Below are positions 1-64,000 of a stretch of DNA of 64,000 nucleotides, piece by piece; the stretch's first letter is position 1, and the number at the start of each line of letters is the position of its first letter. Below the pieces are notes generated by a model. That model did not search any database, was not told where the DNA came from, and saw only the letters and a program-made list of their open reading frames with translations. Source of the stretch: Eledone cirrhosa. Lineage: Eukaryota. The stretch is from positions 69,688,001-69,752,000 of the forward strand of contig OZ024743.1 in assembly GCA_964016885.1 (NCBI GenBank), given 5' to 3'. The translations under genes were made by a program, and so were the position numbers.

Positions 1-2251
1 CGGTCCGAACCAGACCCCGAGCAACTTCACCGGGCCCTCCGTCCAGCGTCCGACGACGCCATCGGAGGGCATCGGTCTGCCCCTCCACGTGCCGAGTTGC
101 AAACCGATCGACTTGTCCCGGTTCAGCTTAGCCCCTGTGAACTTTTCGTACTCCTCCAGTAAGGTGCCGACCGCCTCGATTTCGGAGGCTGTCGACACCA
201 TTACTGTCATGTCATTGGCGTAGGCCGACACCGCTTTCCGCAATCCCGGTTCTAAAGGGATGCCCTGCAACAACTCCAACTTCCGCAGTAGTGGCTCGAG
301 AGTCAACACATACAGAAGGGAGGAGAGAGGGCACCCTTGTCGGATGGACCGCGCGATTTTGAACGGCTCCGAGAGGTAGCCGTTCACCTTGACCCTAGAG
401 CAGATGCGGCTGCTGTGCATAGCAGTGATCCAGCCCCTGAAAACGGGTCCGAAGCCTGCCGCCGCTAGCACCGCATCCAGGTAACCATGGTCGACCCTAT
501 CGAACGCCTTAGATTGATCCAAGTTGATCAGAGCCCCACCAAAGCCGGGTTCGTTCCCAACCCTCTCTATGATGTATCGCATGAGGTGGAGGTTGTCATG
601 GATGGACCTGGACGGGATAGCGCATGTCTGCGCATCTCCCACCAGGTTGCCCACGACAAGCGCCAACTTCTTTGCTAGCACCTTGGCCAAAATCTGTAAC
701 TCTGTATTTAGCAGAGTTATGGGCCTGAAGTTACTTATTTCGTCCCCCTTGTTCCTATCCTTCCTCACTAGCGTGACTACGCCCTTGGTCACAGTACAGG
801 GAATTCTCCCGTTCTGTTGCCAGTTGCAGTAGACCGCCTCGAGGAGATCGGGGAACAAGTCCGGCATAGCTAGATATAATTCGTAAGGAAGACCATCGAG
901 ACCCGGGGATTTGCGTTTGCCGCATTGGCTCAGCACGTCCTCTATCTCAGCCGCCGAAATCGGCTCCTCGCAGGACTTCGCCTCCCTGTCCGAGAGGCGC
1001 GGCAGGCCGTCGAGGTATGGACCGAAGTCCACGTTCCCAACCGGCTCCCCGCCCCTCCCGAACAGTCGGGCAAAGTGCCTTTGAAAGGCCTCACACATCT
1101 GCTTAGGCTCAAGAATCGCCCATCCATCCAGGTCTCGCAAAGACCGGATGGAGGATTTAGTTCCACTGTTGGCCTCTGTCACGCGGGCCCAGCTAACAGC
1201 TTTGGTCCCCTCGTTCCCTAGAGCACGTATTTTACTTCGGACAACGCAGCCTTCGTGCTTCGCGTCGAAAAACTGGCTCAAAGCCGTTCTCGACGCTAGC
1301 ACTCTGGCCACGTCGCCGCTTCTAATTGCCTCTTCTACTCTATCTATTAGCTCCCTTTCCTTCCTATTCCTATCCGCAGCTAGAACCTTACTAAATTCTA
1401 TCGAGACTACTCTAATCTCTCTCTTTAGAGATACCCACCACCTGCTGTTGACGATCGCTCCAGTCAACCGTTCCTTAACTAACGTACTAATCCGATTCCT
1501 GTAGGCTCTACTTGCCGGCAAGGACAAGTTGAGCTTCCAGTAACCGGGGCCCTGTCTATGAGTTCTGTCAAGGTTGACCATGCAGGTCACTAATTTGTGG
1601 TCTGAATAGCCAACCATGCGCATTTTTGGACAACTTAAAAAGTCCTTATCCTTAATTCTAACTAAGAACCTATCTAGGTACGACCTAGATGATCCGCTAC
1701 GATTTGCCCAAGTCCAGGTTGGCGCAGTCGGAAAATCTAGTCGATATCTATCGGCCAGGTCAAATCGACCGATTAACCCTTTGAGGCTATTACACCCCTC
1801 TCTATCGGGGCAGGCCCCTACGTAGTCCCAGCGTGCATCTAGAATACCATTCCAGTGCCCCACTAATAGCAAGGAGCGGGACGTCCCTAGAAAAGTCTCC
1901 AGACGATGGAAGAAGTCCGGCCGCATTGACCCGAAAGGGCCGTAGGCGGCTACCAACCTAAACGCTCTGCCTTTACCACTGCCAAGGTCCAGAACCACTA
2001 GTCGACCCTCCGGGTCCAAATGTACCATCTGTGTTGCGAGACCCAGATGTTTTTTGCAGCAGAACGACAACTCCACCCCCACCTCCGGGCTGACAGAGAG
2101 ATGCGTGCATCTCAAAGTCATCAAAGGTGGGGGCCAGCTGTCGCACGTTGCTGATCCGGGCCTCGCAAATAACCATCACATCTATACGTTGTGACCTGAG
2201 GTCATTTAGAAGCATTGCTTGCTTCCAAGTTGAGCCCAGGCCACGCGCATT

Positions 2252-2253
<2 letters not shown>
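1..2253 (-). pseudogene. 5'-truncated, inactivated copy A of the Tx1/L1-type retrotransposon ORF2 (runs off the window start)
   Basis: Near-identical to 3750-6001 (offset 3749). Carries a +1 T frameshift at ~2050-2055, YADD->YAND (codon 214-216) and GDWN->GHWN (~1856). Its 5' end stops at GCGCATTTA, directly abutting (GATA)n. Confidence 0.93.
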
Positions 2254-2296
<43 letters not shown>

Positions 2297-2325
2297 TATA
2301 GATAAATGGATAGATAAATAGATAT
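2252..2325. repeat. (GATA)n microsatellite: tail of copy B and insertion site of copy A
   Basis: TAGATAGATAGA... run degenerating into GATAAAT/GATATAT, lying between the two retroelement copies. Confidence 0.95.
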
Positions 2326-2588
2326 ATTTCTTTTATTTGCCACTAGGGCATCAAAAGTGGGACAAGTACAAAGGGGGGAGTTTACACAAAAAGGCGTCCT
2401 CAATAAGGAGGAGGCAATAACAAAATATAAAAATAAAATAAGATATAACAAAAAATAAAATTTTTAACAAAATCCTCAATAGAGAGGAGGCGCCTTGGGG
2501 GGTCGCACACACCCCCGAAAAAAGTGTGCAACCCTTCTCCTCAGGAGCACAGAGAAGGGGTGCTCCCTTGGTCTTTCATCTTCCTCAC

Positions 2589-5500
2589 CTATAGTCTGAT
2601 GTAGAGTGAAGGCCCATTCACACGGGCCATTCTCGCCACTTTCACCCATCTTTCATAGAAACGGCTGGGGTGCAGCACCTCTCTCTCCATCCTGATCCTT
2701 CTTCCGAAATGATATCGGAAGAAACGGACCAGTTGTTGGCCAGAGAGAAAGGTGCCCGACCTCAGTCCTTTCAGACGCGTCCACCATACAACCTCTTTCG
2801 CCATGGCTATTACGCACAGAAACACCGCCTCTGCTTCATCTTTGAAGGGGGGAGGCGGCTTGATCATTACAATAGACTCGGTGGTCAACCGGATCGGTCC
2901 CACCCTTGACAGCAGTTGTTCGACATAGCCCCACAGATCGGCTACGCCCGAGCAGTGTACTAAGGCGTGTGCAACGGTTTCCTCGTCGCACACGCATCTG
3001 GGACAGATCTTTTTGGCGGGGTCCCTACCCGGGCGCCCGTGTCTGTAGAGCCTTTCTCGAACGGGTAAAGCCCCTCGGTAGCACTGCCAGGCCAGGGACT
3101 TCTGGAAGTTGTCCATAGGTCCCGGGCTGAATGTCCTACCGAAAAGGCTGGCCAGTTCGTCCTCCTCCATGTCTAGGGCTTCTCCGAGGGCGTCGTCGCA
3201 CCTGCTGCGTACCAGCCCTCTATAGAATGTTGCGGTGGAGTCTCCACTGATAACCGGATCCGCCTGCCAGAGGGCGGTGAGCGCCTGGGCACACTCAGTG
3301 TGCCAGGCGCCCAGTTTTCTCGGTCTTTGCTTGACCCAGGATTGCAGCTCGGTGAGTGAGACGAGTCTGGGAAAGGTTCGTCTCACAAACGAGGCCCACA
3401 CCGGTTGTCCGGTGAGGAATACGTAGAGGTGCCGTAGCCTTAATGCGTGTTTACGCATCATTAGCCACGGCATCCCCAGCCCTCCTTTCGAAGGGTGTTG
3501 ACAGCAGATGGATCTCCTCACCATAGGAGCCCGCCTCTTCCAAAGGAATTGGAAGAGCGCGCGCTCCATCTTGGTGAGGGTTTCCCTTGGGCAGGGCACT
3601 ACGGTCAGGCGGTAGTAGATGACGGACGCTATGTAGGTGTTCGCCACCTCCGCCCGACCTTTCAGGGATAGTTTGCAACTGGCCCACTTCTGGGTCAGTG
3701 CAAACACTCTGTTCGTAACCTCCGCCCAGTTTTTCTCCACCTGGAGGTCCGGTCCGAACCAGACCCCGAGCAACTTCACCGGGCCCTCCGTCCAGCGTCC
3801 GACGACGCCATCGGAGGGCATCGGTCTGCCCCTCCACGTGCCGAGTTGCAAACCGATCGACTTGTCCCGGTTCAGCTTAGCCCCTGTGAACTTTTCGTAC
3901 TCCTCCAGTAAGGTGCCGACCGCCTCGATTTCGGAGGCCGTCGACACCATTACTGTCACGTCATCGGCGTAGGCCGACACCGCTTTCCGCAATCCCGGTT
4001 CCAAAGGGATGCCCTGCAACAACTCCAACTTCCGCAGTAGTGGCTCGAGAGTCAATACATACAGAAGGGAGGAGAGAGGGCACCCTTGTCGGATGGACCG
4101 CGCGATTTTGAACGGCTCCGAGAGGTAGCCGTTCACCTTGACCCTAGAGCAGATGCGGCTGCTGTGCATAGCAGTGATCCAGCCCCTGAAAACGGGTCCG
4201 AAGCCTGCCGCCGCTAGCACCGCATCCAGGTAACCATGGTCGACCCTATCGAACGCCTTAGATTGATCCAAGTTGATCAGAGCCCCACCAAAGCCGGGTT
4301 CGTTCCCAACCCTCTCTATGATGTATCGCATGAGGTGGAGGTTGTCATGGATGGACCTGGACGGGATAGCGCATGTCTGCGCATCTCCCACCAGGTTGCC
4401 CACGACAAGCGCCAACCTCTTTGCTAGCACCTTGGCCAAAATCTGTAACTCTGTATTTAGCAGTGTTATGGGCCTGAAGTTACTTATTTCGTCCCCCTTG
4501 TTCTCGTCCTTCCTCACTAGCGTGACTACGCCCTTGGTCACAGTACAGGGAATTCTCCCGTTCTGTTGCCAGTTGCAGTAGACCGCCTCGAGGAGATCGG
4601 GGAACAAGTCCGGCATAGCTAGATATAATTCGTAAGGAAGACCATCGAGACCCGGGGATTTGCGTTTGCCGCATTGGCTCAGCACGTCCTCTATCTCAGC
4701 GGCCGAAATCGGCTCCTCGCAGGACCTCGCCTCCCTGTCCGAGAGGCGCGGCAGGCCGTCGAGGTATGGACCGAAGTCCACGTTCCCAACCGGCTCCCCG
4801 CCCCTCCCGAACAGTCGGGCAAAGTGCCTTTGAAAGGCCTCACACATCTGCTTAGGCTCAAGAATCGCCCGTCCATCCAGGTCTCGCAAAGACCGGATGG
4901 TGGATTTAGTTCCACTGTTGGCCTCTGTCACGCGGGCCCAGCTAACAGCTTTGGTCCCCTCGTTCCCTAGAGCACGTATTTTACTTCGGACAACGCAGCC
5001 TTCGTGCTTCGCGTCGAAAAACTGGCTCAAAGCCGTTCTCGACGCTAGCACTCTGGCCACGTCGCCGCTTCTAATTGCCTCTTCTACTCTATCTATTAGC
5101 TCCCTTTCCTTCCTATTCCTATCCGCAGCTAGAACCTTACTAAATTCTATCGAGACTACTCTAATCTCTCTCTTTAGAGATACCCACCACCTGCTGTTGA
5201 CGATCGCTCCAGTCAACCGTTCCTTAACTAACGTACTAATCCGATTCCTGTAGGCTCTACTTGCCGGCAAGGACAAGTTGAGCTTCCAGTAACCGGGGCC
5301 CTGTCTATGAGTTCTGTCAAGGTTGACCATGCAGGTCACTAATTTGTGGTCTGAATAGCCAACAATGCGCATTTTTGGACAACTTAAAAAGTCCTTATCC
5401 TTAATTCTAACTAAGAACCTATCTAGGTACGACCTAGATGATCCGCTACGATTTGCCCAAGTCCAGGTTGGCGCAGTCGGAAAATCTAGTCGATATCTAT

Positions 5501-6026
5501 CGGCCAGGTCAAATCGACCGATTAACCCTTTGAGGCTATTACACCCCTCTCTATCGGGGCAGGCCCCTACGTAGTCCCAACGTGCATCTAGGATACCATT
5601 CCAGTCCCCCACTAATAGCAAGGAGTGGGACGTCCCCAGAAAAGTCTCCAGACGATGGAAGAAGTCCGGCCGCATTGACCCGAAAGGGCCGTAGGCGGCT
5701 ACCAACCTAAACGCTCCGCCTTTACTACTGCCAAGGTCCAGAACCACTAGTCGACCCTCCGGGTCCAAATGTACCATCTGTGTTGCGAGACCCAGATGTT
5801 TTTGCAGCAGAACGACAACTCCACCCCCACCTCCAGGCTGACAGAGAGATGCGTGCATCTCAAAGTCATCAAAGGCGGGGGCCAGCTGTCGCACGTTGCT
5901 GATCCGGGCCTCGCAAATAACCATCACATCTATACGTTGTGACCTGAGGTCATTTAGAAGCATTGCTTGCTTCCAAGTTGAGCCCAGGCCACGCGCATTT
6001 AAACAGCCTACTCTTAGCATAGCCAT
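2589..6026 (-). CDS. ORF2 polyprotein: apurinic-like endonuclease, reverse transcriptase and C-terminal CCHC finger
   Basis: 1153-codon open frame, likely ATG at 6026 (MAMLRVGCLNARGL). APE motifs NARG, ICE, GDWN, SYLDRF, SDH; YWKLN linker; RT motifs KSPGLDGLPYE, FRPITLLN, LDQSKAFDRVDH, IRQGCPLS, YADD, LLGVWF; KGGLG; CPRC-x8-H-x4-C. Confidence 0.95.
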   Translation of the reverse strand: MAMLRVGCLNARGLGSTWKQAMLLNDLRSQRIDVMVICEARISNVRQLAPAFDDFEMHASLCQPGGGGGVVVLLQKHLGLATQMVHLDPEGRLVVLDLGSSKGGAFRLVAAYGPFGSMRPDFFHRLETFLGTSHSLLLVGDWNGILDARWDYVGACPDREGCNSLKGLIGRFDLADRYRLDFPTAPTWTWANRSGSSRSYLDRFLVRIKDKDFLSCPKMRIVGYSDHKLVTCMVNLDRTHRQGPGYWKLNLSLPASRAYRNRISTLVKERLTGAIVNSRWWVSLKREIRVVSIEFSKVLAADRNRKERELIDRVEEAIRSGDVARVLASRTALSQFFDAKHEGCVVRSKIRALGNEGTKAVSWARVTEANSGTKSTIRSLRDLDGRAILEPKQMCEAFQRHFARLFGRGGEPVGNVDFGPYLDGLPRLSDREARSCEEPISAAEIEDVLSQCGKRKSPGLDGLPYELYLAMPDLFPDLLEAVYCNWQQNGRIPCTVTKGVVTLVRKDENKGDEISNFRPITLLNTELQILAKVLAKRLALVVGNLVGDAQTCAIPSRSIHDNLHLMRYIIERVGNEPGFGGALINLDQSKAFDRVDHGYLDAVLAAAGFGPVFRGWITAMHSSRICSRVKVNGYLSEPFKIARSIRQGCPLSSLLYVLTLEPLLRKLELLQGIPLEPGLRKAVSAYADDVTVMVSTASEIEAVGTLLEEYEKFTGAKLNRDKSIGLQLGTWRGRPMPSDGVVGRWTEGPVKLLGVWFGPDLQVEKNWAEVTNRVFALTQKWASCKLSLKGRAEVANTYIASVIYYRLTVVPCPRETLTKMERALFQFLWKRRAPMVRRSICCQHPSKGGLGMPWLMMRKHALRLRHLYVFLTGQPVWASFVRRTFPRLVSLTELQSWVKQRPRKLGAWHTECAQALTALWQADPVISGDSTATFYRGLVRSRCDDALGEALDMEEDELASLFGRTFSPGPMDNFQKSLAWQCYRGALPVRERLYRHGRPGRDPAKKICPRCVCDEETVAHALVHCSGVADLWGYVEQLLSRVGPIRLTTESIVMIKPPPPFKDEAEAVFLCVIAMAKEVVWWTRLKGLRSGTFLSGQQLVRFFRYHFGRRIRMEREVLHPSRFYERWVKVARMARVNGPSLYIRL

Positions 6027-6050
6027 GTTGGTGGTGAAGAGAAAAGGCAC

Positions 6051-6842
6051 TTACCTCTCTGCGTCCCGGGTATCGGGCTGCACAATTTCCATTAGGGTGG
6101 GGGATGGGTTGTTGGGTGGGGTGGTGGTTTGTGGAAGTGTGGGGGCATCAGTGTGTTGTGTGGTTGGGGAGCTTGGAGTTGTGAGGGTGTTTGGGGAGGG
6201 GGTGGGATAGTTTTTTAGGAGGACTCGGTTAATGGGCCCGACGCAGGGGGGACCCACGTCCTCTTTAAAATTGTTTTTTAAAGTTTTATAGGTGTCCTGT
6301 GGGGCCTTAATCATTTTGAGGTGGGGGAAATCCCCTGCCTGGGTGAAGTTAGGCCCTTGTGTTTTTATTAGATTGTTGTTGTACACAATGTTTAACAGTT
6401 TTTTGTTTCTTGTATTTATGTATGTGTATGCATGTTTTTGTTTTTGTGTGGTGTTTTTTGTTTGCTGTTGTGAGCTCTTTTGTGTTGGTGTCAGTGTTAT
6501 GTTTTGGGGAGGGGTTTTTTTCATTTGTGTGTCTGAGGTGTGTTTTCTTTTTTTTCTTTTGATTGTGTGGAAGTGCTCCTCCTCGTCTGACGACGAACTA
6601 GGGTCATCTTCCGCGTTGGAGGGGAGGGGTATATTTTCGGGTTGTGTTTGCGGTACGGGTGTTTTGGAAATTGTTTTTGTTTTTTGAGTGGAGGGGATGG
6701 GTTGGACATTGTTTTGTTTTGGTTTGAGCTGTGGTGGTTGTTTTTGTAGTGGTTGTTGTGGTGATTGTGTTGGTTGTGCAGTTGTTGGTGGTGTAGGCAG
6801 GATTGGGGTTTTCTTATTAAGTTGGGGACAGACAGCCCTCAT
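6051..6842 (-). CDS. Partial ORF1-like (Gag-like) frame of the retrotransposon, probably 5'-truncated
   Basis: 263-codon Pro/Thr/Gln/Lys-rich frame with SSSSDEEE and KRKKRK patches, ending in TAA in frame with ORF2. Its ATG is formed at the junction with the GATA repeat, and no CCHC knuckle is visible. Confidence 0.55.
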   Translation of the reverse strand: MRAVCPQLNKKTPILPTPPTTAQPTQSPQQPLQKQPPQLKPKQNNVQPIPSTQKTKTISKTPVPQTQPENIPLPSNAEDDPSSSSDEEEHFHTIKRKKRKHTSDTQMKKTPPQNITLTPTQKSSQQQTKNTTQKQKHAYTYINTRNKKLLNIVYNNNLIKTQGPNFTQAGDFPHLKMIKAPQDTYKTLKNNFKEDVGPPCVGPINRVLLKNYPTPSPNTLTTPSSPTTQHTDAPTLPQTTTPPNNPSPTLMEIVQPDTRDAER

Positions 6843-6872
6843 AGATAGATAGATAGATATTTAGATATATTT
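6841..6872. repeat. (GATA)n tract at the 5' junction of copy B
   Basis: ATAGATAGATAGATAGATATTTAGATATATTT. Confidence 0.9.
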
Positions 6873-7117
6873 ATCCTGGGTTCAATCGGGGGTAACCTCA
6901 GTAAATGAGGTACTCAATACATATTACATATTACATTGACAGTCGGCTTTCCTGATGGTTTCTCTAGAATGAAACAGTTCTAGTCCTGTAGAAGCCATTT
7001 CTATTATATAAATATATATATATATATATATAGTAATAATAATAAAATTGAAGACTAAAATCCAGAGAGGGCTCGATAAGGAAAACATATATAAAATATA
7101 TAAGAACCGAAGAGCAA

Positions 7118-7358
<241 letters not shown>

Positions 7359-9124: not shown

Positions 9125-9332
9125 CCTACAGCGGGTCGGACGCCACGCTCTCCAGCATAGAGTCACGGCCCATTATGATCTGAGTTCAAATCCCGCCGAG
9201 GCTAACTTTGCCTTTCATCCTTACGGTGTCTATAAAATAAAGTTCCAATCACGCACTGTGGTCAATTTAATCGACTTTCCACTCGCCCACCCCAAAAAAA
9301 TTCTGGCCTTGTGCCTATATAAGGAACCATTA
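9125..9332 (+). mobile_element. tRNA-derived SINE
   Basis: B-box GAGTTCAAATCC followed by AACTTTGCCTTTCATCCTTACGG..ATAAAATAAAGT and 3' CTGGCCTTGTGCC; many homologues in the window. Confidence 0.8.
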
Positions 9333-9615: not shown

Positions 9616-11071
9616 CAGTCCCTAATATATTAAGCGTTAAACTAAGATATTTATTCATTTTAATCTATTACTTGCTATTTATATATATACGAATGTCCAA
9701 CATGTAAAACAAGGTTACATTAAAATGGTATTATATGTTATTTTACTGTTTAATATAGTAGGAAAAGATGTATATCTTCGGACTTTTGTACTTCGAAAGT
9801 ACAAACTATGAATTTTTTTGACAATTCGACGATGAAATTTCAGTAATTTACTCATTCCTGATGTGATTTTTTTTTTTCCAATCGTAAATATCGTACGTCA
9901 CAGTTTGCGGTATATATGAAGGTTCTATGCAATAAGTGCGGCTGGCTAGTTCTTCTCACAAGTTACTGTTTTAAGAAACAAGGGTGTGCGAAACTACAAC
10001 GTCGATATTATTTTTTGAAACAACGTCTGTTAATTGCGAACCAACTCAGACTCTTCGTAAAAGTTTCAAATATGGCAGCAATTCTATGGCTTCATCCTAT
10101 TCATGAGAAATATTAAGAAATATAGATTATATAATGATGGGAGGATGAAATAATATAGTGTAACGTAAAAAGTGAAATTATATTTTCTATTCTCTTTTTG
10201 TTTTCCCTAACCATTCTACATTAAAACATTCTATATTTAACAAACTATAATAGAAAACACAGATATGTACTTACACACACACACATACACACACATACAC
10301 AGACACACACAGACACAGATAGACACACACACACACACACACAGACACACAGATACACAAACACACACAGACACACACACAGAGACACACACACAGACAC
10401 ACAGATACACAGACACACACATATACACACACACACACAGACACACACATACGCACACAGACACACACAGAGACGCACACACACACACACACACGCACAC
10501 ACACACATATATATACACACATGTATGTGTTATATATATATATATGTATACATATATATACACACATGCATGATTGTGTTATATATATATGTGAAGAAGA
10601 GAGAGAGAGAGAGAGAGAGGCAGGGAGACTGATACCAGTAATAAAATATATTATGAATTTTTATTGAAAGGAATAATAAGATTCTTAAAAGCGTTTGAAT
10701 GTATAAGTTAAAACGGAAATAATATTCAACCAACGAAATATATCTTTGATCACTGTATTGCTACAATATCGCTTTGTTCAAGTAATATGCTAACGGAATA
10801 TCAAGTGACAGAATAGCTGGTTCACAGAGAGAACAGTATGAAAAGAATTAACGGGGACAAACAGCGTGTGGCGGCCATTGATTCCATACTGGTTGATGAG
10901 CAACGTAGAGAAAGGAAATAAGAAAAATGGCGGTAACTAGTAACTCTAACATACTTTTCTACTTCCGGTGGAATCAAATTCAATTCAATATCTCTTGTAA
11001 GTATTTCACTTCATATTGTTGCACTTTTCCTATCTATCTATTTACGTACATATGTAATTGTGTGTATGTAT

Positions 11072-13129: not shown

Positions 13130-15305
13130 AATCACCAACACTACCACCATCACCAACACTACCACCACCACCAACACTATCACCCCACCAGCGCTACCAC
13201 CATCACCAACACTACCACCATCACCAACACTACCACCATCACCAACACTACCACTCTCACCAGCACTACCACCCCACCAACACTACCACCACCACCAACA
13301 CTACCACCATCACCAGCAATACCACCATCACCAACACTACCACCATCACCAACACTACCACCATCACCAACACTACCACCACCACCAACACTACCACCCC
13401 ACCAACACTACCACCATCACCAACACTAGCACCACCACGAACACTACCACCCCACCAACACTACCACCACCACCAAAACTACAACTATCACCAACATTAC
13501 CACCCCACCAACACTACCACCACCACCAACACTACCACCATCACCAACACTACCAACATCACCAACACTACCACCATCACCAACACTACCACCACCACGA
13601 ACACTACCACCCCACCAACACTACCACCATCACCAACACTACCACCACCACCAACACTACCACCCCACCAACACTACCACCCCACCAACACTACCACCAT
13701 CACCAACACTAATCACCATCAAAAACACTACAACCACCACCAACACTACCACCCCACCAACACTACCACCATCAGCAACACTACCAGCATCACCAACACT
13801 ACCACCACCACCAACACTACCACCCCACCAACACTACCACCATCACCAACACTACCACCATCACCAACACTACCAACATCACCAACATTACCACCATCAC
13901 CAACACTACCACCACCACCAACACTACCACCGTCACCAACACTACCACCATCTAAAACACTACCACCACCACCAACACTACCACCCCACCAACACTACCA
14001 CCATCACCAACACTACCACCATCACCAACACTACAACCATCACCAACACTACCAGCATCACCAACACTACCACCACCACCAACACTACCACCCCACCAAC
14101 ACTACCACCATCACCAACACTACCACCATCACCAACACTACCAACATCACCAACACTACCACCATCACCAACACTACCACCACCACGAACACTACCACCC
14201 CACCAACACTACCACCATCACCAACACTACCACCATCAACAACACTACCACCATCACCAACACTACCACCATCACCAACACTACCACCATCACCAACACT
14301 ACCACCATCACCAACAATACCACCACCACCAACACTACCACCGCCACCAACACTACCACCATCTAAACACTACCACCACCACCAACACTACCACTCCACC
14401 AACACTACCACCCCACCAACACTACCACCCCACCAACACTACCACCATCACCAACACTACCACCCCACCAACACTACCACCCCACCAACACTACCACCAA
14501 CACCAACACTACGACCCCACCAACACTACCGCCATCACCAACACTACCACCATCACCAACACTACCACCATCACCAACATTACCACCACCACCAACACTA
14601 CCACCACCACCAACACTACCACCATCACCAACACTACCACCATCACCAACACTACCACCATCACCAACACTACCACCATCACCAACACTACCACTCTCAC
14701 CAGCACTACCACCAACACCAACACTACGACCCCACCAACACTACCGCCATCACCAACACTACCACCATCACCAACACTACCACCATCACCAACACTACCA
14801 CCACCACCAACAATACCACCCCACCAACACTACCACCATCACCAGCACTACCACCAACACCAACACTACCACCATCACCAACACTACCACCATCACCAAC
14901 ACTACCACCCCACCAACACTACCACCACCACCAACACTACGACCCCACCAACACTACCACCGTCACCAACACTACCACTCTCACCAACACTACCACTCTC
15001 ACCAACACTACCACCACCACCAACACTACCACCATCACCAACACTACCACCATCACCAACACTACCACCACCACCAACACTACCACCACCACCAACACTA
15101 CCACCATCACCAACACTACCACCACCACCAACACTACCACCATCACCAACACTACCACTCTCACCAACACTACCACCACCACCAACACTACCACCATCAC
15201 CAACACTACCACCACCACCAACACTACCACCACCACCAACACTACCACCATCACCAACACTACCACCATCACCAACACTACCACTCTCACCAACACTACC
15301 ACCAC
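13130..15305. repeat. 18-bp minisatellite CACCAACACTACCACCAT (with 17-bp CCCC variants)
   Basis: Directly visible, >100 units. Confidence 0.95.
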
Positions 15306-16700
15306 CACCATCACTACCATCACCACCATCACTACCATCACTACCATCACCATCATCACTACCGTCACTACCATCACCACCATCACTACCATCACCACCA
15401 TCACCCCCATCACCACCATCACCACCATCACTACCATCACCACCATCAGTCCCATCACCACCATCACCACCATCACTACCATCACCACCATCACCACCAT
15501 CACTACCGTCACCACCATCACTACCATCACCACCATCACTACCATCACTACCAGCACCACCAACACTACCATCACCACCATCACTACCATCACCACCATC
15601 ACTACCGTCACCACCATTACTACCATCACTACCATCACCACCATCACTACCATCACCACCATCACTACCATCACCAACATCACTACCATCACCACCATCA
15701 CTACCGTCACCACCATTACTACCATCACTACCATCACCACCATCACTACCATCACCACCATCACTACCATCACCAACATCACTACCATCACCACCATCAC
15801 TACCGTCACCACCATTACTACCATCACCAACATCACTACCATCACCACCATCACTACCGTCACCACCATTACTACCATCACCACCATCACTACCATCACC
15901 ACCATCACTACCGTCACCACCATCACCACCATCACTACCATCACTACCATCACCACCATCACTACCATCACCACCATCACTACCGTCACCACCATCACTA
16001 CCATCACCACCATCACCACCATCACCACCATCACTACCATCACTACCATCACCACCATCACTACCATCACCACCATCACCACCATCACTACCATCACTAC
16101 CATCACCACCATCACTACCATCACCACCATCACTACCATCACCACCATCACTACCATCACCACCATCACCACCATCACTACCATCACTATCATCACTACC
16201 GTCACCACCATCACCACCATCACCACCATCACTACCATCATCACCATCACTACCATCACCACCATCACTACCGTCACCATCACCACCATTACTACCATCA
16301 CTACCATCACTACCATCACCACCATCACCAACATCACCACCATCACTACCATCACCACCATCACTACCGTCACTACCATCACCACCATCACCACCATTAT
16401 TACCATCACCACCATCACTACCATCACCACCATCACTACCATCACTACCATCACTACCATCACCAACATCACTACCATCACCACCATCACCACCATCACT
16501 ACCATCACCATCATCACTACCGTCACCACCATCACTACCAGCACCACCATCACTACCATGACTACCATCACCACCATCACCACCATCACTACCATCACCA
16601 CCATCACTACCGTCACCACCATAACCACCATCACCACCATCACTACCATCACCACCATCACTACCGTCACCACCATCACTGCCATCACCACCATCACCAA
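15306..16700. repeat. 9-bp-based minisatellite (CACTACCAT/CACCACCAT)
   Basis: Directly visible; generates the 622-aa and 587-aa shadow ORFs. Confidence 0.95.
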
Positions 16701-16802
16701 TACAATTCACGCCTTCAGTCTTACCATTACGATCACCAACACCGACATCATCATCAACACAACCCAGCAACCATGTTTCCCATTATCCCTCCAATCAACA
16801 AG

Positions 16803-17783
16803 CTACAAACAGCATCATTCCCACAACCAGCACCAGTGGTAACGTCACCACCCACATTCTACAAACAGCATCATTCCCACAACCACCACCAGTGGTAACG
16901 TCACCACCCACATTCTACAAACAGCATCATTCCCACAACCACACACCCGTGGTAACGTCACCACCCACATTTCACAAACATCATCATTCCCACAACCACC
17001 ACCAGTGGTAACGTCACCACCCACATTCTACAAACAGCATCATTCCCACAACCACCACCAGTGGTAACGTCACCACCCACATTCTACAAACAGCATCATT
17101 CCCACAACCACCACCAGTGGTAAAGTCACCACCCACATTCTACAAACAGCATCATTCCCACAACCACCACCAGTGGTAACGTCACCACCCACATTCTACA
17201 AACAGCATCATTCCCACAACCACCACCAGTGGTAACGTCACCACCCACATTCTACAAACAGCATCATTCCCACAACCACCACCAGTGGTAACGTCACCAC
17301 CCACATTCTACAAACATCATCATTCCCACAACCACCACCAGTGGTAACGTCACCACCCACATTCTACAAACAGCATCATTCCCACAACCACCACCAGTGG
17401 TAACGTCACCACCCACATTCTACAAACATCATCATTCCCACAACCACCACCAGTGGTAACGTCACCACCCACATTCTACAAACAGCATCATTCCCACAAC
17501 CACCACCAGTGGTAACGTCACCACCCACATTCTACAAACATCATCATTCCCACAACCACCACCAGTGGTAACGTCACCACCCACATTCTACAAACAGCAT
17601 CATTCCCACAACCACCACCAGTGGTAACGTCACCACCCACATTCTACAAACATCATCATTCCCACAACCACCACCAGTGGTAACGTCACCACCCACATTC
17701 TACAAACATCATCATTCCCACAACCACCACCAGTGGTAACGTCACCACCCACATTCTACAAACAGCATCGTTCCCACAACCAC
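16803..17783. repeat. 56-bp tandem repeat, ~17.5 highly similar copies
   Basis: Unit CTACAAACAGCATCATTCCCACAACCACCACCAGTGGTAACGTCACCACCCACATT starting at 16803, 16859, 16915 and onward. Confidence 0.95.
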
Positions 17784-18555
17784 AACCACCACCACCACCA
17801 TTAACATAATCATCACAAACACCACCATCGCCACAAGAAACACACCCTTCACCAACACTACAGTTAGAAACAACACAACGACTGACACCAGAATCATCAT
17901 CAGCATCATTATCAACACCACCACAGAAGCAACAACACCACTACCACCAGCAACATCATCAATACCACTACCACCACCACCACCACTACCACTACATACA
18001 CCCCCACCACCACCACCACAAGGAACAGAGCCATCGACATCATTGTAGTTACAAACAACACATTCAACACCAGCGTCAGCATCAACACCAACACCAACAA
18101 CACCACGACCACCAACAACACCAACACCACCACCACCACCACCACCCGCATCACCACCACCACCACCACTAGCACCAGCACCACCAGCACCACCAGCACC
18201 ACCAGCACCACCAGCCCCAACACCACCACCACCACCACCACCACCAACAACAACAACTACAACACCAACAACACCACCAGCATCAGCACCAGCACCAGCA
18301 CCACCACCACTAGCACCATCACCACCACTAGCACCAACACCAGCACCACCACCATCAACAACACCACCATCACCACCACCACCACACCGTCCATTACTTC
18401 TACAATAATCTCCGATTGTTAAGAAACAGTAAAAGAAACAAGTAAACAATTTTACCCGTCAATTATCATCAATATTGGCGGCAAATTCGCCTCATCTACC
18501 ATATTAACCATCTTTAGCACCACTAGCAATAAATCCACCTCCAACACACGACAAC

Positions 18556-20754: not shown

Positions 20755-20920
20755 TTTCTGATTTAGGCAGAGGTCAAACTATTTGGAGGATGTGAAAGTC
20801 GATTAAATCGACCCAGTACTTAGCTGGTACTTTATCCTATTGATCCTAGAAAGGGGGAAAGGCAAAGGTGACCGCGGTGGGATTTGAAACTAGAATGTAG
20901 ACGGCCGTAACGAAATGTAT
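20755..20920 (-). mobile_element. tRNA-derived SINE
   Basis: Reverse complement of the 9125 family: CTGGTACTTT...GAAAGGCAAAGG...GGGATTTGAA. Confidence 0.75.
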
Positions 20921-21319: not shown

Positions 21320-21478
21320 GGAATCGACCTCAGTACTTGACTGGTAGTGTTTTATCAACCTCGAATGGATCCAAGACAAAGTTCACCTCAGTGGAATTTG
21401 AACTCAGAGATCAAAGAGCCAAAACGAATAGAACAAATCTTTCTATCCGACATTCAAACGACGCTATCAATTCACCGA
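21320..21478 (-). mobile_element. tRNA-derived SINE
   Basis: CAGTACTTGACTGGTA...GGAATTTGAACTCAGA. Confidence 0.7.
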
Positions 21479-24542: not shown

Positions 24543-24737
24543 CGAAGGAAGTGTGGTAAGGAACCAGGTGGACCATAACGCACCTGAGTACTCAATACTT
24601 AGGGTAGTAGAGTGGGTAATAGGAAAATGTTAAAGATCCCGACGGCAGAGCTCAAGCCGTTTCGACGGCTATTCAGTCCAGAAATAGTCGTCGAAACGGC
24701 TTGAGCTCTGCCGTCGGGGTCTTGAACATTTTCCTAT
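24540..24737 (-). mobile_element. Family-A fold-back hammerhead-bearing element in (TA)n
   Basis: Inverted arms 24619-24673 / 24683-24737, turning in the stem II loop; GAAA-CGGC-ttgagctct-GCCG-TC on both strands. Confidence 0.85.
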
Positions 24738-25010: not shown

Positions 25011-25690
25011 TACCTTTTTATCATCGTAGTGGACTATTGCACTGGAGAAACACCAGGAATCTGGCTTTACTGTAGCACCGGCTCAGAGCAGGAGAGTTAG
25101 GGCGAAAAAGGCATCGGATGCTGAATTTGCCGACGACATAGTTTTGGTGACAAATACAGTGAAGGAGGCAGAGGATTTGATGCGGGAGGTTGAGACTGTG
25201 TCGATGAGTGTGGGGCTGAGAATGAATGAGACTAAAACAAAATACCTGGTAGAGAATGTTGAGAAGCCAGAGGCGATCACTAATGTAGGCGGGAAGCCGC
25301 TAGAATTGGTTGAGGGCTTCCTGTATTTGGGAGCAAAGATTGGGAATACGGAAAATGATGTGGTTGAGAGGAAGAGCAAGGCCTCAGCGGCGTGCCACAG
25401 CTTGAGATCGGTGTGGAAGTCGGACCTTCGTAGAGACCTGAAAATCCGCCTCTTCATTGCTGTAGTGGAGTCTGTGCTGCTGTATGGGTCTGAGACTTGG
25501 ACACTGACCAAGAAACTCACTCAGATGGTGGATGGGTGCTACACGAGAATGCTGAGGATGGCTCTGAACATTAATCAGTATACACTGAGGATGAAAACTC
25601 AGAGATGTATGGGAGCATCCCAAAAGTCAGCTCAAAAGTGACACAGAGGAGACTGAGGTTAGCTGGACATGCTCACGGACATCCAGAGTT

Positions 25691-27929: not shown

Positions 27930-28263
27930 TGTGGGCATGCCAACAAAGTCAGAAAACAGCACAGCTCCCATGACTTTCGGAAACATTTTTTCACGCTCAG
28001 AGTTGCTGAAGCATGGAGCAAACTACCTGCATCAGTTATTAGCTGTCGAGACACAGCATCCTTTAAAACCTCCATGCTTCCTGACATTCGCCAACACTAC
28101 ACCTAATATTCTCCCTCCATACACACGCACGCATGTATATCATGACTCATACACTATGCACTTCTCTGACATTTGTATATTATTCTATGTACTATACATG
28201 CACTTTTGATGAGTTGTAGTGCACCTGAGCACTGTACACAATAATTTCATTATTATTATTATT
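27930..28263 (+). mobile_element. CR1-clade LINE 3' end with (ATT)n tail, nested in a minus-strand SINE
   Basis: GHANKVRKQHSSHDFRKHFFTLRVAEAWSKLPASVISC... matches the CR1 'RGH..K...R..FF..RV...WN.LP' motif; SINE halves on both sides. Confidence 0.8.
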
Positions 28264-29324
28264 GTATTTTATCCGACGTTCTAACAGCCCTGCCAAATCG
28301 CTGCCTCTATACCTAATATATTGCAGTCAATTAGTCTAAAAATATATTGCAGTCAATTATGCTAAAAGTATTGTTGTATGAGTATTTTTTAAAGAAATAC
28401 ACAAAACACACGTGCCTCGAATTTAGTCGCTAAACCCGTGCAATAATCGGATTCACAAACCATCTACGGACACAAAATCCGAACAACTAAAGCTAAACTC
28501 ATTCACTGTCTTCGGCTACTTATAGACGAACAAGACATACAAGAATTTGTACCAACGCTTTATGGTAAGGACCTCACATAGGTAATACATTGAGTAGAAG
28601 CAGGTTTCCTAGGTGAAATTGATTAGATTTCTATACATCTAACCTCCTTCATCTCACAATCTATCGGTTGGTTTTAATGTATTAACTCTCATCGTTTCAA
28701 TATCTCTACGTATTTTAATTTCTCTTAATCTTTTTTTTTTCCGTCTTTCTATAACTTCAATACTTCAGTTCGTTTACTTCTTGGTAGTGGTTGTAATGGC
28801 AGCATTGGTGGAGTTTTTTTTTTGTGGTTGTAAATGCGTTGTTGTTGGTGGAGGTAGGGATTGTGCCTGTAGTGATGTTGGTGGAGGCATTCTTGTTAAT
28901 GGTGGTTGTAGTGGCGTTGTTATTGTTGATGATTGTAGTGGTGCTAATCTTGTCATCGTCGTCGTTGTTGTTGTTGTTGTTATTTATCTTCTTCTTCTTC
29001 TTCTTCTTCTTCTTCTTCTTCTCCCCCCCCTCCTCTTCCTCTTCCATCAGATCTACAACAGCCTCTATATAACCTTGACAGATCATAAACCCATAAACAA
29101 CAGAATATTCACTCCTCACCGATGTTGCTGTGCTCTATTTCACTTTCTCACTCTCTCCCTCATTCCACACCCACTAACATACAAATACACATAAAGATAT
29201 GTGTATATATACACAAGCATGTATATATGGACCTGTGTATATGCTGCAAAGACTGGCGTCCGACCCTCTAACAACACTGCCAATCCACCGCAAAAAATGG
29301 GCCATTAAATATATACACAGAAGG

Positions 29325-29512
29325 GAGGTAAATTGGCAGCCTCGATAGAGGGTCGAACGCCATACTTTGACGCATACAGTTATGGCCCTTGCCATTCTGA
29401 GTTCAAATCCCACCGAGATTAACTTTGCCTTTCATCCTTACGGGGTCGATAAAATAGAGTACCAGTAATGTACTGGGTAATTGCTGGCCTTGTGCCAATA
29501 GTAGAAACAATT
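29325..29512 (+). mobile_element. tRNA-derived SINE (near full length; inverted head fragment at 29240-29291)
   Basis: TGGCAG A-box-like start, GAGTTCAAATCCC B box, TTTGCCTTTCATCCTTACGGGGTCGATAAAAT. Confidence 0.85.
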
Positions 29513-29939: not shown

Positions 29940-30367
29940 AGGGTCATATTTGTGTAATAATATTGCCAGAATTAATAACAGAACACACTCACTGTTTGGT
30001 TGGTTTTCGCTTCTGTGTATTTTATATCGATTAATTTAATTTATTCGGTCCTCAATGTTACCAATGACTGACGAACGGTCAAAAATACAGATATAATATA
30101 GATACAAACACATATATATAGTCTAACAAATTTCTTTCGTTGCACATCTGACGATGTTGCAGATGTGCAACGAAAGAACTTTGTTTGACTATATATATGT
30201 GTTTGGTCTATATTATATCTGTATTTTTGACCGTTGGTCACTCAATGGTAACATTGTGGACCGAATAAATTAAATTAACCGATATAAAAGACACAAGCGA
30301 AAACCAACCAAACAGTGAGTGTGTTCTGTTATTAATTCTAGCAATATTATTACACAAATATGACCCT
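29940..30367. mobile_element. Family-C long fold-back element (~210-bp arms) centred on a hammerhead core
   Basis: Arms 29940-30150 / 30160-30367; centre CTGACGA-T-GTTGC-agatgt-GCAAC-GAAA (30148-30175); terminal fragment also at 53991-54033. Confidence 0.85.
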
Positions 30368-31097: not shown

Positions 31098-31755
<658 letters not shown>

Positions 31756-32396: not shown

Positions 32397-32745
32397 TAAT
32401 AATAATAATAATAATGAAATGATTGTGTAAAGTGCTCAGGTGCACTACAACTCGTCAAAGGTGCATGTATAGTACATAGAATAATATACAAATGTCAGGG
32501 AAGTGAATAGTCATGATATACATATGTGTATGTGTATGGAGGGGGAACATTAGGTGTAGTGTAGGCGAATCTCTGGAAGCATGGAGGTTTCAAAGGATGC
32601 AGTGTCTCGACAGCTAATAACTGATGCAGGTAGTTTGTTCCATGCTTCAGTAACTCTGAGCGTGAAAAAATGTTTCCAAGAGTCATGGGAACTGTGCTGT
32701 TTTCTGACTTTGTGGGCATGCCCACGTGTGTTAGACACATGGAAA
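32397..32745 (-). mobile_element. CR1-clade LINE 3' end with (ATT)n tail
   Basis: ORF 32550-32738 SNTRGHAHKVRKQHSSHDSWKHFFTLRVTEAWNKLPASVISC; same family as 27930. Confidence 0.85.
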
Positions 32746-33395: not shown

Positions 33396-33880
33396 AGAAA
33401 GTGAGGTTTTTCTACAAAATGAAAAATAACCGAGGTGTCCTACACGAGTGAAAGTATAAAGAAAAAAGATGAAGTCGAAAATGCAACTGGAGTCTTATTT
33501 TTAAAGAAATATATATATTTATTTGGTTCCTTTACCGGTTTCGCAGTTCTTCTGCTTTTCAAAAGGGGTTTATAGTAATAGGAATATTTATATTTATATA
33601 TGTTTGATATAACTATAAATATGTAGGGTAGTTCTAAGTACTAACCAGTTACCGGTATGACAAAAGGCTCAATGCAAATTTTCAAGTGTTTTACAGAGCC
33701 GAGATAGAAAGTGTTAAAACGATCAAATTTTAGTTTAGAACATTTATTAGCTGACAATTGTTTCTTCCAGAGGGAAGACTGGAATCATCGGAGCTCCGAT
33801 GATTCGAGACTTCCCTCTGGAAGAAACAATTGTCAGCAAATAAATGTTCTAAACTAAAATCTTATCGTTTTAACACTTTG
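33396..33880. mobile_element. Penelope-like remnant in (TA)n with a terminal fold-back and hammerhead-like motifs
   Basis: Palindrome 33707-33879 centred on GGAGCTCC; arm reads GCT-CCGATGA-TTCCAG...CTGGAA-GAAA-C-AATT-G-TC^AGC (consensus of both arms). A second degenerate motif lies on the minus strand at ~33533-33565 (GCAG-aagaa-CTGC-GAAACCGGTA). Confidence 0.75.
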
Positions 33881-33883
33881 TAT

Positions 33884-36894: not shown

Positions 36895-37085
36895 TTCTTT
36901 CCAGCACTGGTACCTGGCCAGCTATTGTTAAGAAGGGGTATGTCGATTTTATTGAATGCAGTACTTAACTGGTATGTTATTATCTCGGCCTCAGAAGGTG
37001 GAAAGCAAAGTTAACCTCCGTGTGATTTGAACTCAGAACTTAGAGAATCATAACTACGTATTGTGGTAGTGCCAAACCATCTCCT
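36895..37085 (-). mobile_element. tRNA-derived SINE
   Basis: CAGTACTTAACTGGTA...GAAAGCAAAGTTAACCTC...GATTTGAACTCAGA. Confidence 0.7.
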
Positions 37086-38879: not shown

Positions 38880-39525
<646 letters not shown>

Positions 39526-39885: not shown

Positions 39886-40928
39886 GTAGATACATACGTA
39901 CGTACATATGAATATTTATAATCTTCTTTGTGAAGCTCTCTTCCTTTGTATCCACTGTGGTTTTATTTTTTCCAACACTGAATATATATATATTTTTCTG
40001 AAGCCAATATTTAAATATCCTTCATCATTTTGTTTTAGCTTTGATCCGTTTTTAACATACAGCGTCTTCAAATTGCTTATTTTTGTACCAGCCAAATTGG
40101 TCGCAAATTACTGGCCAGGACAGTTTTCTTTTTATATAATTAAAACAAAAATAACATATCGAAATTTTGCACTAATTAAACAGTCTAGCTAATGAGCATC
40201 CTTTTATCCAGACGTTATTATTGCTAGAAATGTCAGCCATTTTGCTGTATATTGATTTACAAATATGGGGAATGTACATAAGCAATGGAATACACGAGTT
40301 TTAATTTGACTGGTTTTGACTGTTGGAACTGGTTTAATCGTAGGTTTGACGGAATTTTGACTACGGGAACTGGTTTGATCGTAGGTTTTCTTGTAACTCG
40401 GTTGTCCAATTGCTAAGCATTTCTTATTTTACAACAATTCGTTTACCAGTCCATGAGGAGTTATCGATCTATACAAGCATATCTACCATTATTCACTACT
40501 TCCTTATTCGATTAAGCTACCCATTATTTACACAAATCCTTTCTAGTTGCCCTCCCTCATTCCCATTATAAACTATGAAGAATTTAATAAATATATATTC
40601 TTAAGGTGAGGTCAAATTCATATTTAATCTAATTGAGGCTCCAAAAGTTGTACCAGTCTTGTACTGGGGTCGATTACTCCAATCTATCTCTTTCTCACGT
40701 CCCTTTCTCACACTCTATCCTTCTCTGGAGGAAATCTGTTGTATTCAGACCTACAGAGAATTTGGCTCCACCAGGTTTCAAGATGGCCTAGTGATGCTAT
40801 ATGTTAATATGAAGTCACGGGACATGCATGTATGCATATTCTTAAAAACGCAGTTTTCGATTGTTGCTGTCGTTTTTCTTTCTTTTAGAATGGGGAGAAT
40901 CTATTTCATATTTATTTCGTTTCAATAA

Positions 40929-41116
40929 TTGTTTCTAGTTTTGGCACAAGGCCAGTAATTATCTCAGTATAATACTAGTACTTTATTTTATCGATCCCTT
41001 ACGGATGAAAGGCAAAGTTAACCTCGGCGTGATTTGAACTCAGATCATAAAGGTGCGTAACTCTTTGTTGCAAAGCATGGCGTCCGACCCTCTACCGATA
41101 CTGCCAATCCACCACC
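40929..41116 (-). mobile_element. tRNA-derived SINE, near full length
   Basis: Reverse-complement match to 29325-29512. Confidence 0.85.
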
Positions 41117-41579
41117 GTTTCAATAATGGCGTTTAATTTAGAAACAAGTTCAGCAATTTGTGGGGAACTAAATTTGTGGGGAACCTCAGTATTTAGGTAC
41201 TATTCTATTTTATCAAACAAATCTAAATCGTGTGTTCCAGTAAAATCAGCGGAATATCTATGAACCTGTAACGTAGATCTCAAAAAAAGTCAGCACGAAA
41301 TGGTTGGCTCTATGAATTACAGGTACAACTTAGTTTTGCTAGCTGTGTGAACTGGAGTAGCGGGGAGTGAAATGTTTTGCTTAAGGATACAGATACAACG
41401 TGTGACACTAGCCGGGAATAAGCAATGCACCTTAACATTTCGTTTCACTATCGACAATAAAATTCCAATATTTATATTTAAATTTTAATCCAAATTAGTG
41501 TAATATTGAATTTTATATTTATTTATGACAGTGGATATGTGATTTATTGTCATAAAAGAACGCTTTCAACAAAGAGTTG

Positions 41580-49134: not shown

Positions 49135-49262
49135 ACTAAAGGTAGACGACCGGACGCCATGCTTAGCTGTATAGTGTTACGGTACTTACGGTTTGAGTTC
49201 AAAACCCGTCGAGGTTAACTTTGCCTTTCAACCTTACGGGTCGATAAATTAAATCACCTGCA
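49135..49262 (+). mobile_element. tRNA-derived SINE
   Basis: GAGTTCAAAACCCGTCGAGGTTAACTTTGCCTTTCAACCTTACGGGTCGATAAA. Confidence 0.75.
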
Positions 49263-50389
49263 ATAATATGGTAATGCCTATTTAGATAGGTGTTTTAATA
49301 ACGATCGTAAGGTCACGTGTTCGATACCAGGTGGCACATTGTGTCGTTAAGTAAGGCAGAGTGGTGCTTGCTCTGTTCTTTGTATTTTAATGTTAAAGGT
49401 TCAGTTTTCAAAATTCACTTATCTGTTAAAATGTATTCCCCTGTAATTCAATAAGCCAGTTTTGTCAAACATTGTATCAAAAGGACACCCTGAGATATAC
49501 GTTAGTTTTCGCGAGGCTAGGAAATACTCAGCAATGCTGACGTTCATTTCATGTGCAGGGTGTCGGTTTATAGAAACAACTGCGACAATCATTATCAGAA
49601 CCGATGTACCTCCAACATATATATTACCACCAGTGCTAACAGTACTATGTTGAATAGGTTTATCGTTACAATTCTACGTAGAATCGCATGCCTGTATTTA
49701 TGTTTGAAGAATTCGATTTGCAAGCACATGATTTCGGTTCACTCACACTGTCTGGAAAACTGGGAAAGTGTCCTTATTTATATCCTCCTGTTGACCAAAC
49801 CATTTTGAATGATGTTTGCCTGGCTAAAACATTGTGGAAACCCGTTATGTATAGAGTGTGTGAAAAACATTGAAATCAATGGCCGTCTCCAAGCTTGTGA
49901 ATTAGTGTTATAATGATGACAAATTTTGTGGAATAAATCTTATGATGCTCAACATTAAGCCTGCCTAGACTTGTTGTCGTAGACTTTGTAGTTTCTGGGA
50001 TATTTACGTCTAAAATGATATCTATTTATCTTTTAACACACTGTATATGCGAATCTACTGCTGAGAAACGTGATGCCTTTCCTCGGGATTTGTATGAACA
50101 TTTTGTTAGGTCGATTACGTGTTTCACGGTGTGTCTGGAGTCCGATCGTGTGCCAGTTGAAGAGGCTGAGAGTTCATGGTGACCAGACACTAACCAAACG
50201 GTAAAAGATGTGAAAAATATTTACAGAACATGTCAATGAAGACAGAAGATGAGAAAACACAAGCAGACACACACGCACAAACACACAGACACACACACAC
50301 ACACTCACACACACGCACACACATACATATATATATATATATATACTGACACTCGTGCGCACACAGACACACATACACACACACACACT

Positions 50390-63873: not shown

Positions 63874-63949
63874 TGATATTAAATAAATGGAAACTATATT
63901 TATAAAACCATATTTGTTCTATTATATATATATATAATAGAACAAATAT
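63874..63949 (-). mobile_element. Family-B terminal fragment with a 40-bp palindrome
   Basis: ATAAATGGAAACTATATTTATAAAACCATATTT matches 31206 onward, then ATATTTGTTCTATTA(TA)nTAATAGAACAAATAT. Confidence 0.7.
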
Positions 63950-64000
63950 TCATTCTTATGGGGTCGATAAAATAAAGTACCAGTAAAACACTGGGCAATT

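Follow-up and report, generated by a model that had tools for sequence, protein, structure and literature searches.

Can a long interspersed nuclear element (LINE) home to (GATA)n microsatellites? The question is raised by a stretch of 64,000 nucleotides from the genome of Eledone cirrhosa (GenBank assembly GCA_964016885.1, contig OZ024743.1, positions 69,688,001 to 69,752,000), here called the window and numbered from its first letter. In it two copies of one element, A and B, lie one behind the other on the minus strand, with (TATC)n, which is (GATA)n on the opposite strand, at their visible ends. By our judgement, which was not computed, a GATA preference of this family is fairly probable, and a GATA specificity encoded in its endonuclease is somewhat doubtful. 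Copies A and B are recent insertions of one young LINE family of the L1 group, likely of the Tx1 type.

Copy B spans 4.5 kb (2330-6842, minus strand). Its second open reading frame (ORF2; 2589..6026, minus) is intact and encodes 1145 amino acids in a single frame that is open from 6050 to 2589, with a methionine at 6026. Pfam matches were obtained for Exo_endo_phos (E=2.8e-8) and RVT_1 (E=5.2e-26), and a zf-RVT match (E=3.9e-5) was found under the Pfam cut-off. The apurinic/apyrimidinic endonuclease (APE)-type domain (5307..6026, minus) was recognized by Pfam, by an AlphaFold model with a predicted local distance difference test (pLDDT) score of 80, and by Foldseek, whose top matches were the L1 endonuclease (L1-EN) and its LTx variant with template modelling (TM) scores of about 0.8. 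The hairpin loop of this domain (about 5433-5459, minus) comprises 9 residues and was itself modelled with a pLDDT below 50. The residues N10, E39, Y112, D141, N143, D202 and H227 are invariant across a 13-row alignment of diverse relatives, and the same seven align with human L1 ORF2p. Of the L1 residues, D145 and H230 are listed as conserved and as catalytic or structural in function (PMC1950540). The reverse transcriptase (RT) core (3762..4493, minus; RVT_1, residues 512-755) carries the motif YADD at residues 686-689. The C-terminal CCHC zinc-binding region (2931..3101, minus; residues 976-1032) corresponds to the zf-RVT match under the cut-off, has conserved cysteines and reads C-X2-C-X8-H-X4-C at residues 1008-1025.

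Upstream of ORF2, a spacer of 24 nt (6027..6050, minus), in which a splice-donor-like GGTAAGT overlaps the stop codon of ORF1, is preceded by an open low-complexity frame of 263 amino acids (6051..6842, minus). The frame starts with MRAVCPQ; these residues are compatible with the last part of a CCHC knuckle, and among 18 knuckle variants of the relatives CPQ is the ending of 16. Position, composition and motif suggest that it is the C-terminal part of ORF1; homology to the ORF1 of relatives was not detected by BLASTP (E=1.9) or by a profile, which scored below shuffled controls. The units of relatives measure 6.4-6.8 kb with an ORF1 of about 630-730 amino acids, compared to 4.5 kb and 263 amino acids upstream of ORF2 in copy B. 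Copy B is thus about 2 kb shorter, has no 5' untranslated region (UTR) and has lost most of ORF1 (about 250 residues); it is very probably 5'-truncated, apparently with its break inside the ORF1 knuckle. An autonomous full-length element comprises a 5' UTR, a whole ORF1 and a whole ORF2, and copy B holds only the last of these. With its 5' UTR and about 250 ORF1 residues absent, it is not a complete source element, so that the intact ORF2 indicates youth, not autonomy. The 3' UTR (2330..2588, minus) ends in a predicted hairpin and AATAAA (2337-2332). The hairpin (-7.1 kcal/mol, z=-1.8) was equalled in stability by 13 of 200 shuffled sequences and is not significant alone. Copy B ends without poly(A) and thus lacks a tail of the mammalian L1 type.

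Splice-donor-like motifs occur at both stop codons of copy B (6050-6056 and 2584-2590, minus). Most relatives checked, though not the unit L001, likewise carry a GT(A/G)AG on, or no more than about 15 nt from, each of the two stops, against a background of 3% per 25-nt window. It may be speculated, on general biological grounds, that these motifs could recruit U1 and suppress polyadenylation.

Copy A (1..2253, minus) starts at ORF2 codon 10, in the endonuclease domain, and leaves the window before its own 3' end; it is certainly 5'-truncated. It is 98.9% identical to positions 3750-6001 of copy B, from which it differs by 24 substitutions (10 synonymous and 14 non-synonymous, spread over all 2.25 kb) and one indel. 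Besides the missing first nine codons, its ORF2 has one extra T in a run at 2050-2055, which causes a frameshift and stops after the indel. Homology to copy B stops at 2253, with a TA common to element and repeat, and copy A thus starts 80 nt behind the AATAAA of copy B within perfect (TATC)n. An earlier note on this DNA had described an uninterrupted ORF2 with its catalytic motifs, an AATAAA followed by (TATC)n in place of poly(A), a copy A that begins inside the repeat behind copy B, and a young element; the present data bear out all four descriptions.

Behind the AATAAA of copy B the (TATC)n runs from 2324 to 2252, and the whole tract between the two copies (2252..2329, minus) is first degenerate (2297-2329) and then perfect (2252-2296). 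A second tract lies directly 5' of copy B (6841..6872, minus), with the repeat at 6841-6867 and a perfect part of 19 nt at 6841-6859. Copy B, and only copy B, is therefore seen with a same-strand repeat on both sides (6841-6867 and 2252-2324). Three junctions abutting GATA had been claimed; their coordinates are right and all of them touch repeats, but since the 5' end of copy A and the 3' end of copy B lie in one tract, there are two tracts and not three independent junctions. The two tracts are probably one microsatellite split by copy B, and the (TATC)n "tail" of copy B may be host flank rather than element sequence. Both share an 11-nt start, which occurs twice elsewhere in the window, and both open with an AAAT step that provides an L1-type TTT/A site on the opposite strand. 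Just upstream of the 5' tract, at 6895-6914 (minus), a short hairpin with GATAAA was noticed (folding z=-0.5; no second copy in the window), so that this flank may represent the 3' end of a further retroposon. A target-site duplication of 32 bp was considered for copy B and rejected: 28 of 32 positions match, but a pure TATC run gives 26-27 and one background window gives 28.

Such a flank is scarce in the window. Of the 114,200 strand-positions that lie outside the element, only 30 have 16 nt in perfect TATC phase immediately before them (54 for 12 nt), and GATA-type tracts make up about 0.2-0.6% of the window, the degenerate ones 0.57% of the window outside the element. Because a perfect TATC flank is rare, a GATA flank by chance is unlikely. 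The judgement given at the outset sets this chance rate, about 0.5-1%, against a prior probability of a few per cent that GATA is targeted.

The affiliation of the element was assessed by protein comparisons. The best matches to copy B ORF2 were the protein P0003 (69%) and a protein of the octopod Argonauta hians (63%), the nearest named relative, followed by several dozen others at about 35-50%. A profile of ORF2 matched L1 ORF2p with E=3e-118 and R2 proteins with E=7e-35 or weaker, L1 and R2 being the only full proteins among the matches. Copy B has the features of the L1 group, namely an N-terminal APE endonuclease, an RT and a C-terminal CCHC, and is nearer to L1 than to R2. A Tx1 type is likely for both copies, given the CCHC-knuckle ORF1 of relatives and the L1-Tx1 families that are reported as recently active in Octopus vulgaris (PMC13282606); no named Tx1 protein appeared among the 95, 97 and 101 matches of three homologue searches. 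Pfam zf-CCHC was found in three of four scanned ORF1 proteins of relatives and the CCHC pattern in all four, with the knuckle near residue 250, and an ORF1 with CCHC knuckles is called consistent with Tx1 (PMC5203782). A profile scan of genome contigs yielded 44 loci, 40 of them on 16 contigs of CAXXMW01; the four distant loci from other assemblies were excluded from junction counts. A scan with a single protein gave 33 pattern matches and no relative, and a search of the ESM Atlas gave generic endonuclease-RT clusters only. In an RT tree of 36 rows, which included plant L1s and one ascidian protein and no named Tx1 families, copy B and P0003 were sister to a clade of array-forming elements with Shimodaira-Hasegawa-like approximate likelihood ratio (SH-aLRT) supports of 99-100, in agreement with a FastTree of 64 rows.

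This sister clade is informative on what the lineage does without GATA. The 40 CAXXMW01 loci consist almost entirely of head-to-tail arrays, whose elements have two ORFs and share 41% identity with copy B in ORF2. Only 5 of 7,870 alignments fall on the opposite strand, and units within one subfamily are 98.8-99.9% identical. A hairpin stands right before AATAAA in all nine relative 3' ends that were folded (singly, with no shuffle control), with differing stem sequences. The next copy starts about 3 to 17 nt behind AATAAA. The spacer found in front of full copies also precedes two independent truncated copies, which begin 17 nt after the AATAAA of the preceding unit, and one truncated junction occurs twice, in identical form, in the array L033. 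Judged from these sequences, the stacking habit is ancestral.

Several observations concern the arrays themselves. The 16 contigs (loci L001-L038, L041 and L043) carry the label of a bacterial metagenome-assembled genome, and the parts fetched are almost entirely eukaryotic LINE arrays of a single orientation, which lack poly(A) and reach at least 36 kb in length; they look like contamination by host (animal) DNA. At L009:3037-4100 and at the corresponding places of 12 other loci, the subfamilies have a conserved 3' UTR in common but have exchanged the 5' UTR and the beginning of ORF1. In several of the 5' UTRs, motifs that resemble splice donors and acceptors hint at an intron. One of the loci outside the clade, L039, holds a distant L1/Tx1-like element between two matches to U1 small nuclear RNA (snRNA), and the 19 nt just before its ORF1 read MARTKQ, the sequence with which histone H3 begins (L039:3036-3199, 3346-3364 and 9961-10137).

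Apart from the scarcity of the flank, a GATA preference is favoured by the start of copy A, which lies about 80 nt behind AATAAA in perfect repeat and thus outside the spacing of 3-17 nt in the relatives. The endonuclease also differs: the hairpin loop has 9 residues in copy B and in two relatives of 61-63% identity, and 11-13 residues in six of the seven sister-clade proteins measured. In L1-EN the hairpin loop shapes target choice (PMC1950540).

A number of points weigh against this preference. The evidence consists of one locus, chosen for its striking look, where no more than two insertion events can be seen and copy A runs past the window edge before its 3' end. No clean target-site duplication could be defined. 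The family-wide (GATA)n specificity that had been proposed thus goes beyond the data; a family is termed microsatellite-specific when the same repeat is found at more than 20% of independent copies (PMC4494074). Microsatellites of all kinds form 22.6% of the rest of the window, so that landing in some microsatellite is unremarkable. The loop length of 9 residues is also that of the promiscuous human L1, and the loops of Tx1L and TRAS1 comprise 11 residues (PMC1950540), longer than that of copy B. None of 52 distinct, pattern-matched 3' ends in the sister clade has poly(A) or a TATC/GATA tract behind it, although a single TATC stands behind two of them; these ends are non-independent, with 21 different 12-mers after the signal. 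At two array edges of this clade the first copy begins in unrelated host-like DNA, neither adjoining a GATA tract. Since the sister clade stacks without poly(A) and without GATA, stacking and the loss of poly(A) are traits of the lineage and no evidence for a GATA target. The earlier note had read both as signs of a self-regenerated GATA target, for which these two traits do not count.

The sequences document which domains are present, that the copies are almost identical, that same-strand TATC lies on both sides of copy B, that copy A is truncated, and the 3' end and stacking of the sister clade; nick position, RNA end and order of insertion are inferred as follows. Target-primed reverse transcription would have placed both copies in a single (GATA)n microsatellite. 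The integrating transcripts would be unpolyadenylated and read briefly into the flank, carrying along a few UAUC units. The endonuclease would nick the GATA strand, either in the tract or at its A/T-rich edge, and the freed DNA end would pair with the UAUC tail of the RNA and prime synthesis. Synthesis would halt early, and the product would be joined via a microhomology of 2 nt, TA for copy A and AT for copy B if the first codon of the latter is original. With TATC left on both sides, the site would still be usable and could accept a second copy. The GATA preference would be a trait of this sub-lineage itself, acquired in step with the 9-residue hairpin loop. Taken as a whole, we hold this explanation to be as probable as improbable. 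Two mechanisms fit, namely a new specificity of the endonuclease and priming by a complementary RNA tail. Only tentatively do we propose that a poly(A)-less cephalopod L1/Tx1 lineage inserts behind its own 3' end, building up retrotransposon satellites of tens of kilobases, and that the branch found here has remodelled its loop and nicks (GATA)n specifically.

The strongest alternative dispenses with any GATA preference: an element that, like L1, prefers to nick T/A-rich sites would insert after its own 3' end as the sister clade does, its founder having come to GATA by chance, and the TATC would be host flank. In keeping with this, the sister-clade arrays have no target repeat between copies. 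Copy B ends in AATAAA and AG, much like the subfamilies L020-L023, and the TTT/A site opposite the AAAT step at both tract starts agrees with the L1 consensus (PMC1950540). The high microsatellite content of the window points in the same direction, but GATA-type tracts are a minute part of it, and a copy A that starts 80 nt on, in perfect repeat, does not match the short spacing seen in the relatives. We consider this alternative unlikely.

Less likely still is a single integration with a template jump, in which copy A was copied, the RT jumped to the 3' end of a B RNA with its UAUC tail, and the flank followed. Any GATA bias would then be exerted via pairing between RNA tail and primer, with no new endonuclease specificity. 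End-to-end jumping is known for R2 (as cited in PMC4494074), only one genomic 5' flank is visible (6841-6872), and the shared tract would be explained without a second nick. However, at 78 nt the tract that separates copies B and A is long, and its partial degeneration is what one would expect of a host microsatellite; moreover, truncated relatives keep the 17-nt spacer of full copies, which resembles a duplicated target. A tandem formed at the DNA level (by duplication or unequal crossing-over via the GATA tracts), or an assembly join of two alleles, would suit the repeat tracts that flank the join, the doubled junction in L033, by which such arrays do duplicate, and the homopolymer indel of copy A, which could be a read error, but it is very improbable because copy A has its own 5' breakpoint in ORF2, unlike that of copy B and joined to perfect TATC, and its substitutions are scattered over the whole 2.25 kb.

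Rfam gave no match in the window or in six array loci and ARAGORN no tRNA gene in the window, so that a tRNA or snRNA target is absent from it. No host gene was found among the 57 window ORFs scanned (of 113 candidates). At 13131-17827, an 18-bp minisatellite in about 200 copies gives way to a 56-bp unit repeated 17.6 times; the strand skew of this region is extreme, and long frames in it are free of stops. A SINE-like (short interspersed nuclear element) dispersed repeat, presumably resembling an abundant octopus SINE, is present in eight copies that are 71-87% alike (9130-9283, 20794-20911, 21322-21408, 29321-29512, 36934-37045, 40927-41119, 49141-49264 and 63949-64000). A likeness between this repeat and the 3' end of the relatives was dropped, as BLASTN gave no match. 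An RT fragment of another, unrelated LINE lies at 25030-25641 (RVT_1 and DUF6451, both under cut-off). Two inverted copies of 333 bp, 91% identical and ending in (ATT)n (27931-28263 and 32401-32725), resemble LINE 3' ends. Long palindromic sequences similar to miniature inverted-repeat transposable elements, several of them between (TA)n runs, were seen at 7118-7254, 24619-24737, 29940-30367, 31255-31627, 33704-33883 and 39069-39178.

LINEs that target microsatellites are known; a GATA target, if true, extends their list and founds no new class. If the endonuclease does nick (GATA)n specifically, this would amount to an APE specificity not seen before, to a change from self-targeting to microsatellite targeting that can be traced, and to a mobile element that both splits GATA repeats and seeds them anew. 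The way in which APE endonucleases acquire sequence specificity is described as poorly understood (PMC3812793), and the array-forming sister clade, with loops of 11-13 residues and no repeat target, and the 9-residue-loop branch in GATA form a natural pair for this question. A GATA-homing LINE would also bear on the spread of simple repeats in cephalopod genomes and on tools for site-directed insertion. More surprising still may be that the sister clade forms head-to-tail arrays without poly(A).

In the open literature searched, neither a GATA-targeting LINE nor poly(A)-less head-to-tail arrays were found; Repbase and Dfam were outside this scope and an earlier annotation may exist. Among known site-specific elements, Dewa is linked with tRNA, and Waldo, Mino and Dong belong to other clades. 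The last three also live in simple repeats, although in others (ACAY, AC and TAA), none of them GATA (PMC3812793). The available part of this 2013 review lists ACAY, AC, TC, TTC and TAA targets and no GATA. Tx1 families that target TC, TTC, TTCC and TTTC repeats, U2 genes and DNA transposons are documented (PMC4494074). The closest parallels, likened by description, are Kibi, Koshi and the crocodilian (TTCC)n/(TTTC)n families of Tx1, which like copies A and B are APE-type L1-group LINEs in microsatellites (PMC4494074; PMC3812793). They inhabit pyrimidine-strand repeats of vertebrates, whereas the element described here sits in (GATA)n and its nearest named relative is an octopod protein. In Octopus vulgaris, 13 families of L1-Tx1 with 421 recent insertions are reported (PMC13282606); these and the L1-Tx1 elements of other coleoids probably represent the same repeat class in the same host group, and the available parts of both accounts gave no description of target, tail or arrays (PMC13282606; PMC8967140). 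Tandem insertion via a regenerated target, comparable to the arrangement of copies A and B, is found in Tx1L of Xenopus and in Tx1-Mar/SINEU-3 (PMC1950540; PMC4494074). The target of these elements is a DNA transposon, and Tx1L has a loop of 11 residues compared to 9 in copy B. The LTx loop variant was the top structural match of the copy B endonuclease, only marginally above L1-EN. Human LINE-1 (PDB 8sxt and others) shares with copy B the architecture of endonuclease and RT, the catalytic residues and the loop of 9 residues. Its copies are dispersed and carry poly(A) tails, whereas the lineage of copies A and B is distinguished by a shorter ORF2, a knuckle ORF1 in the relatives, ends without poly(A) and arrays.

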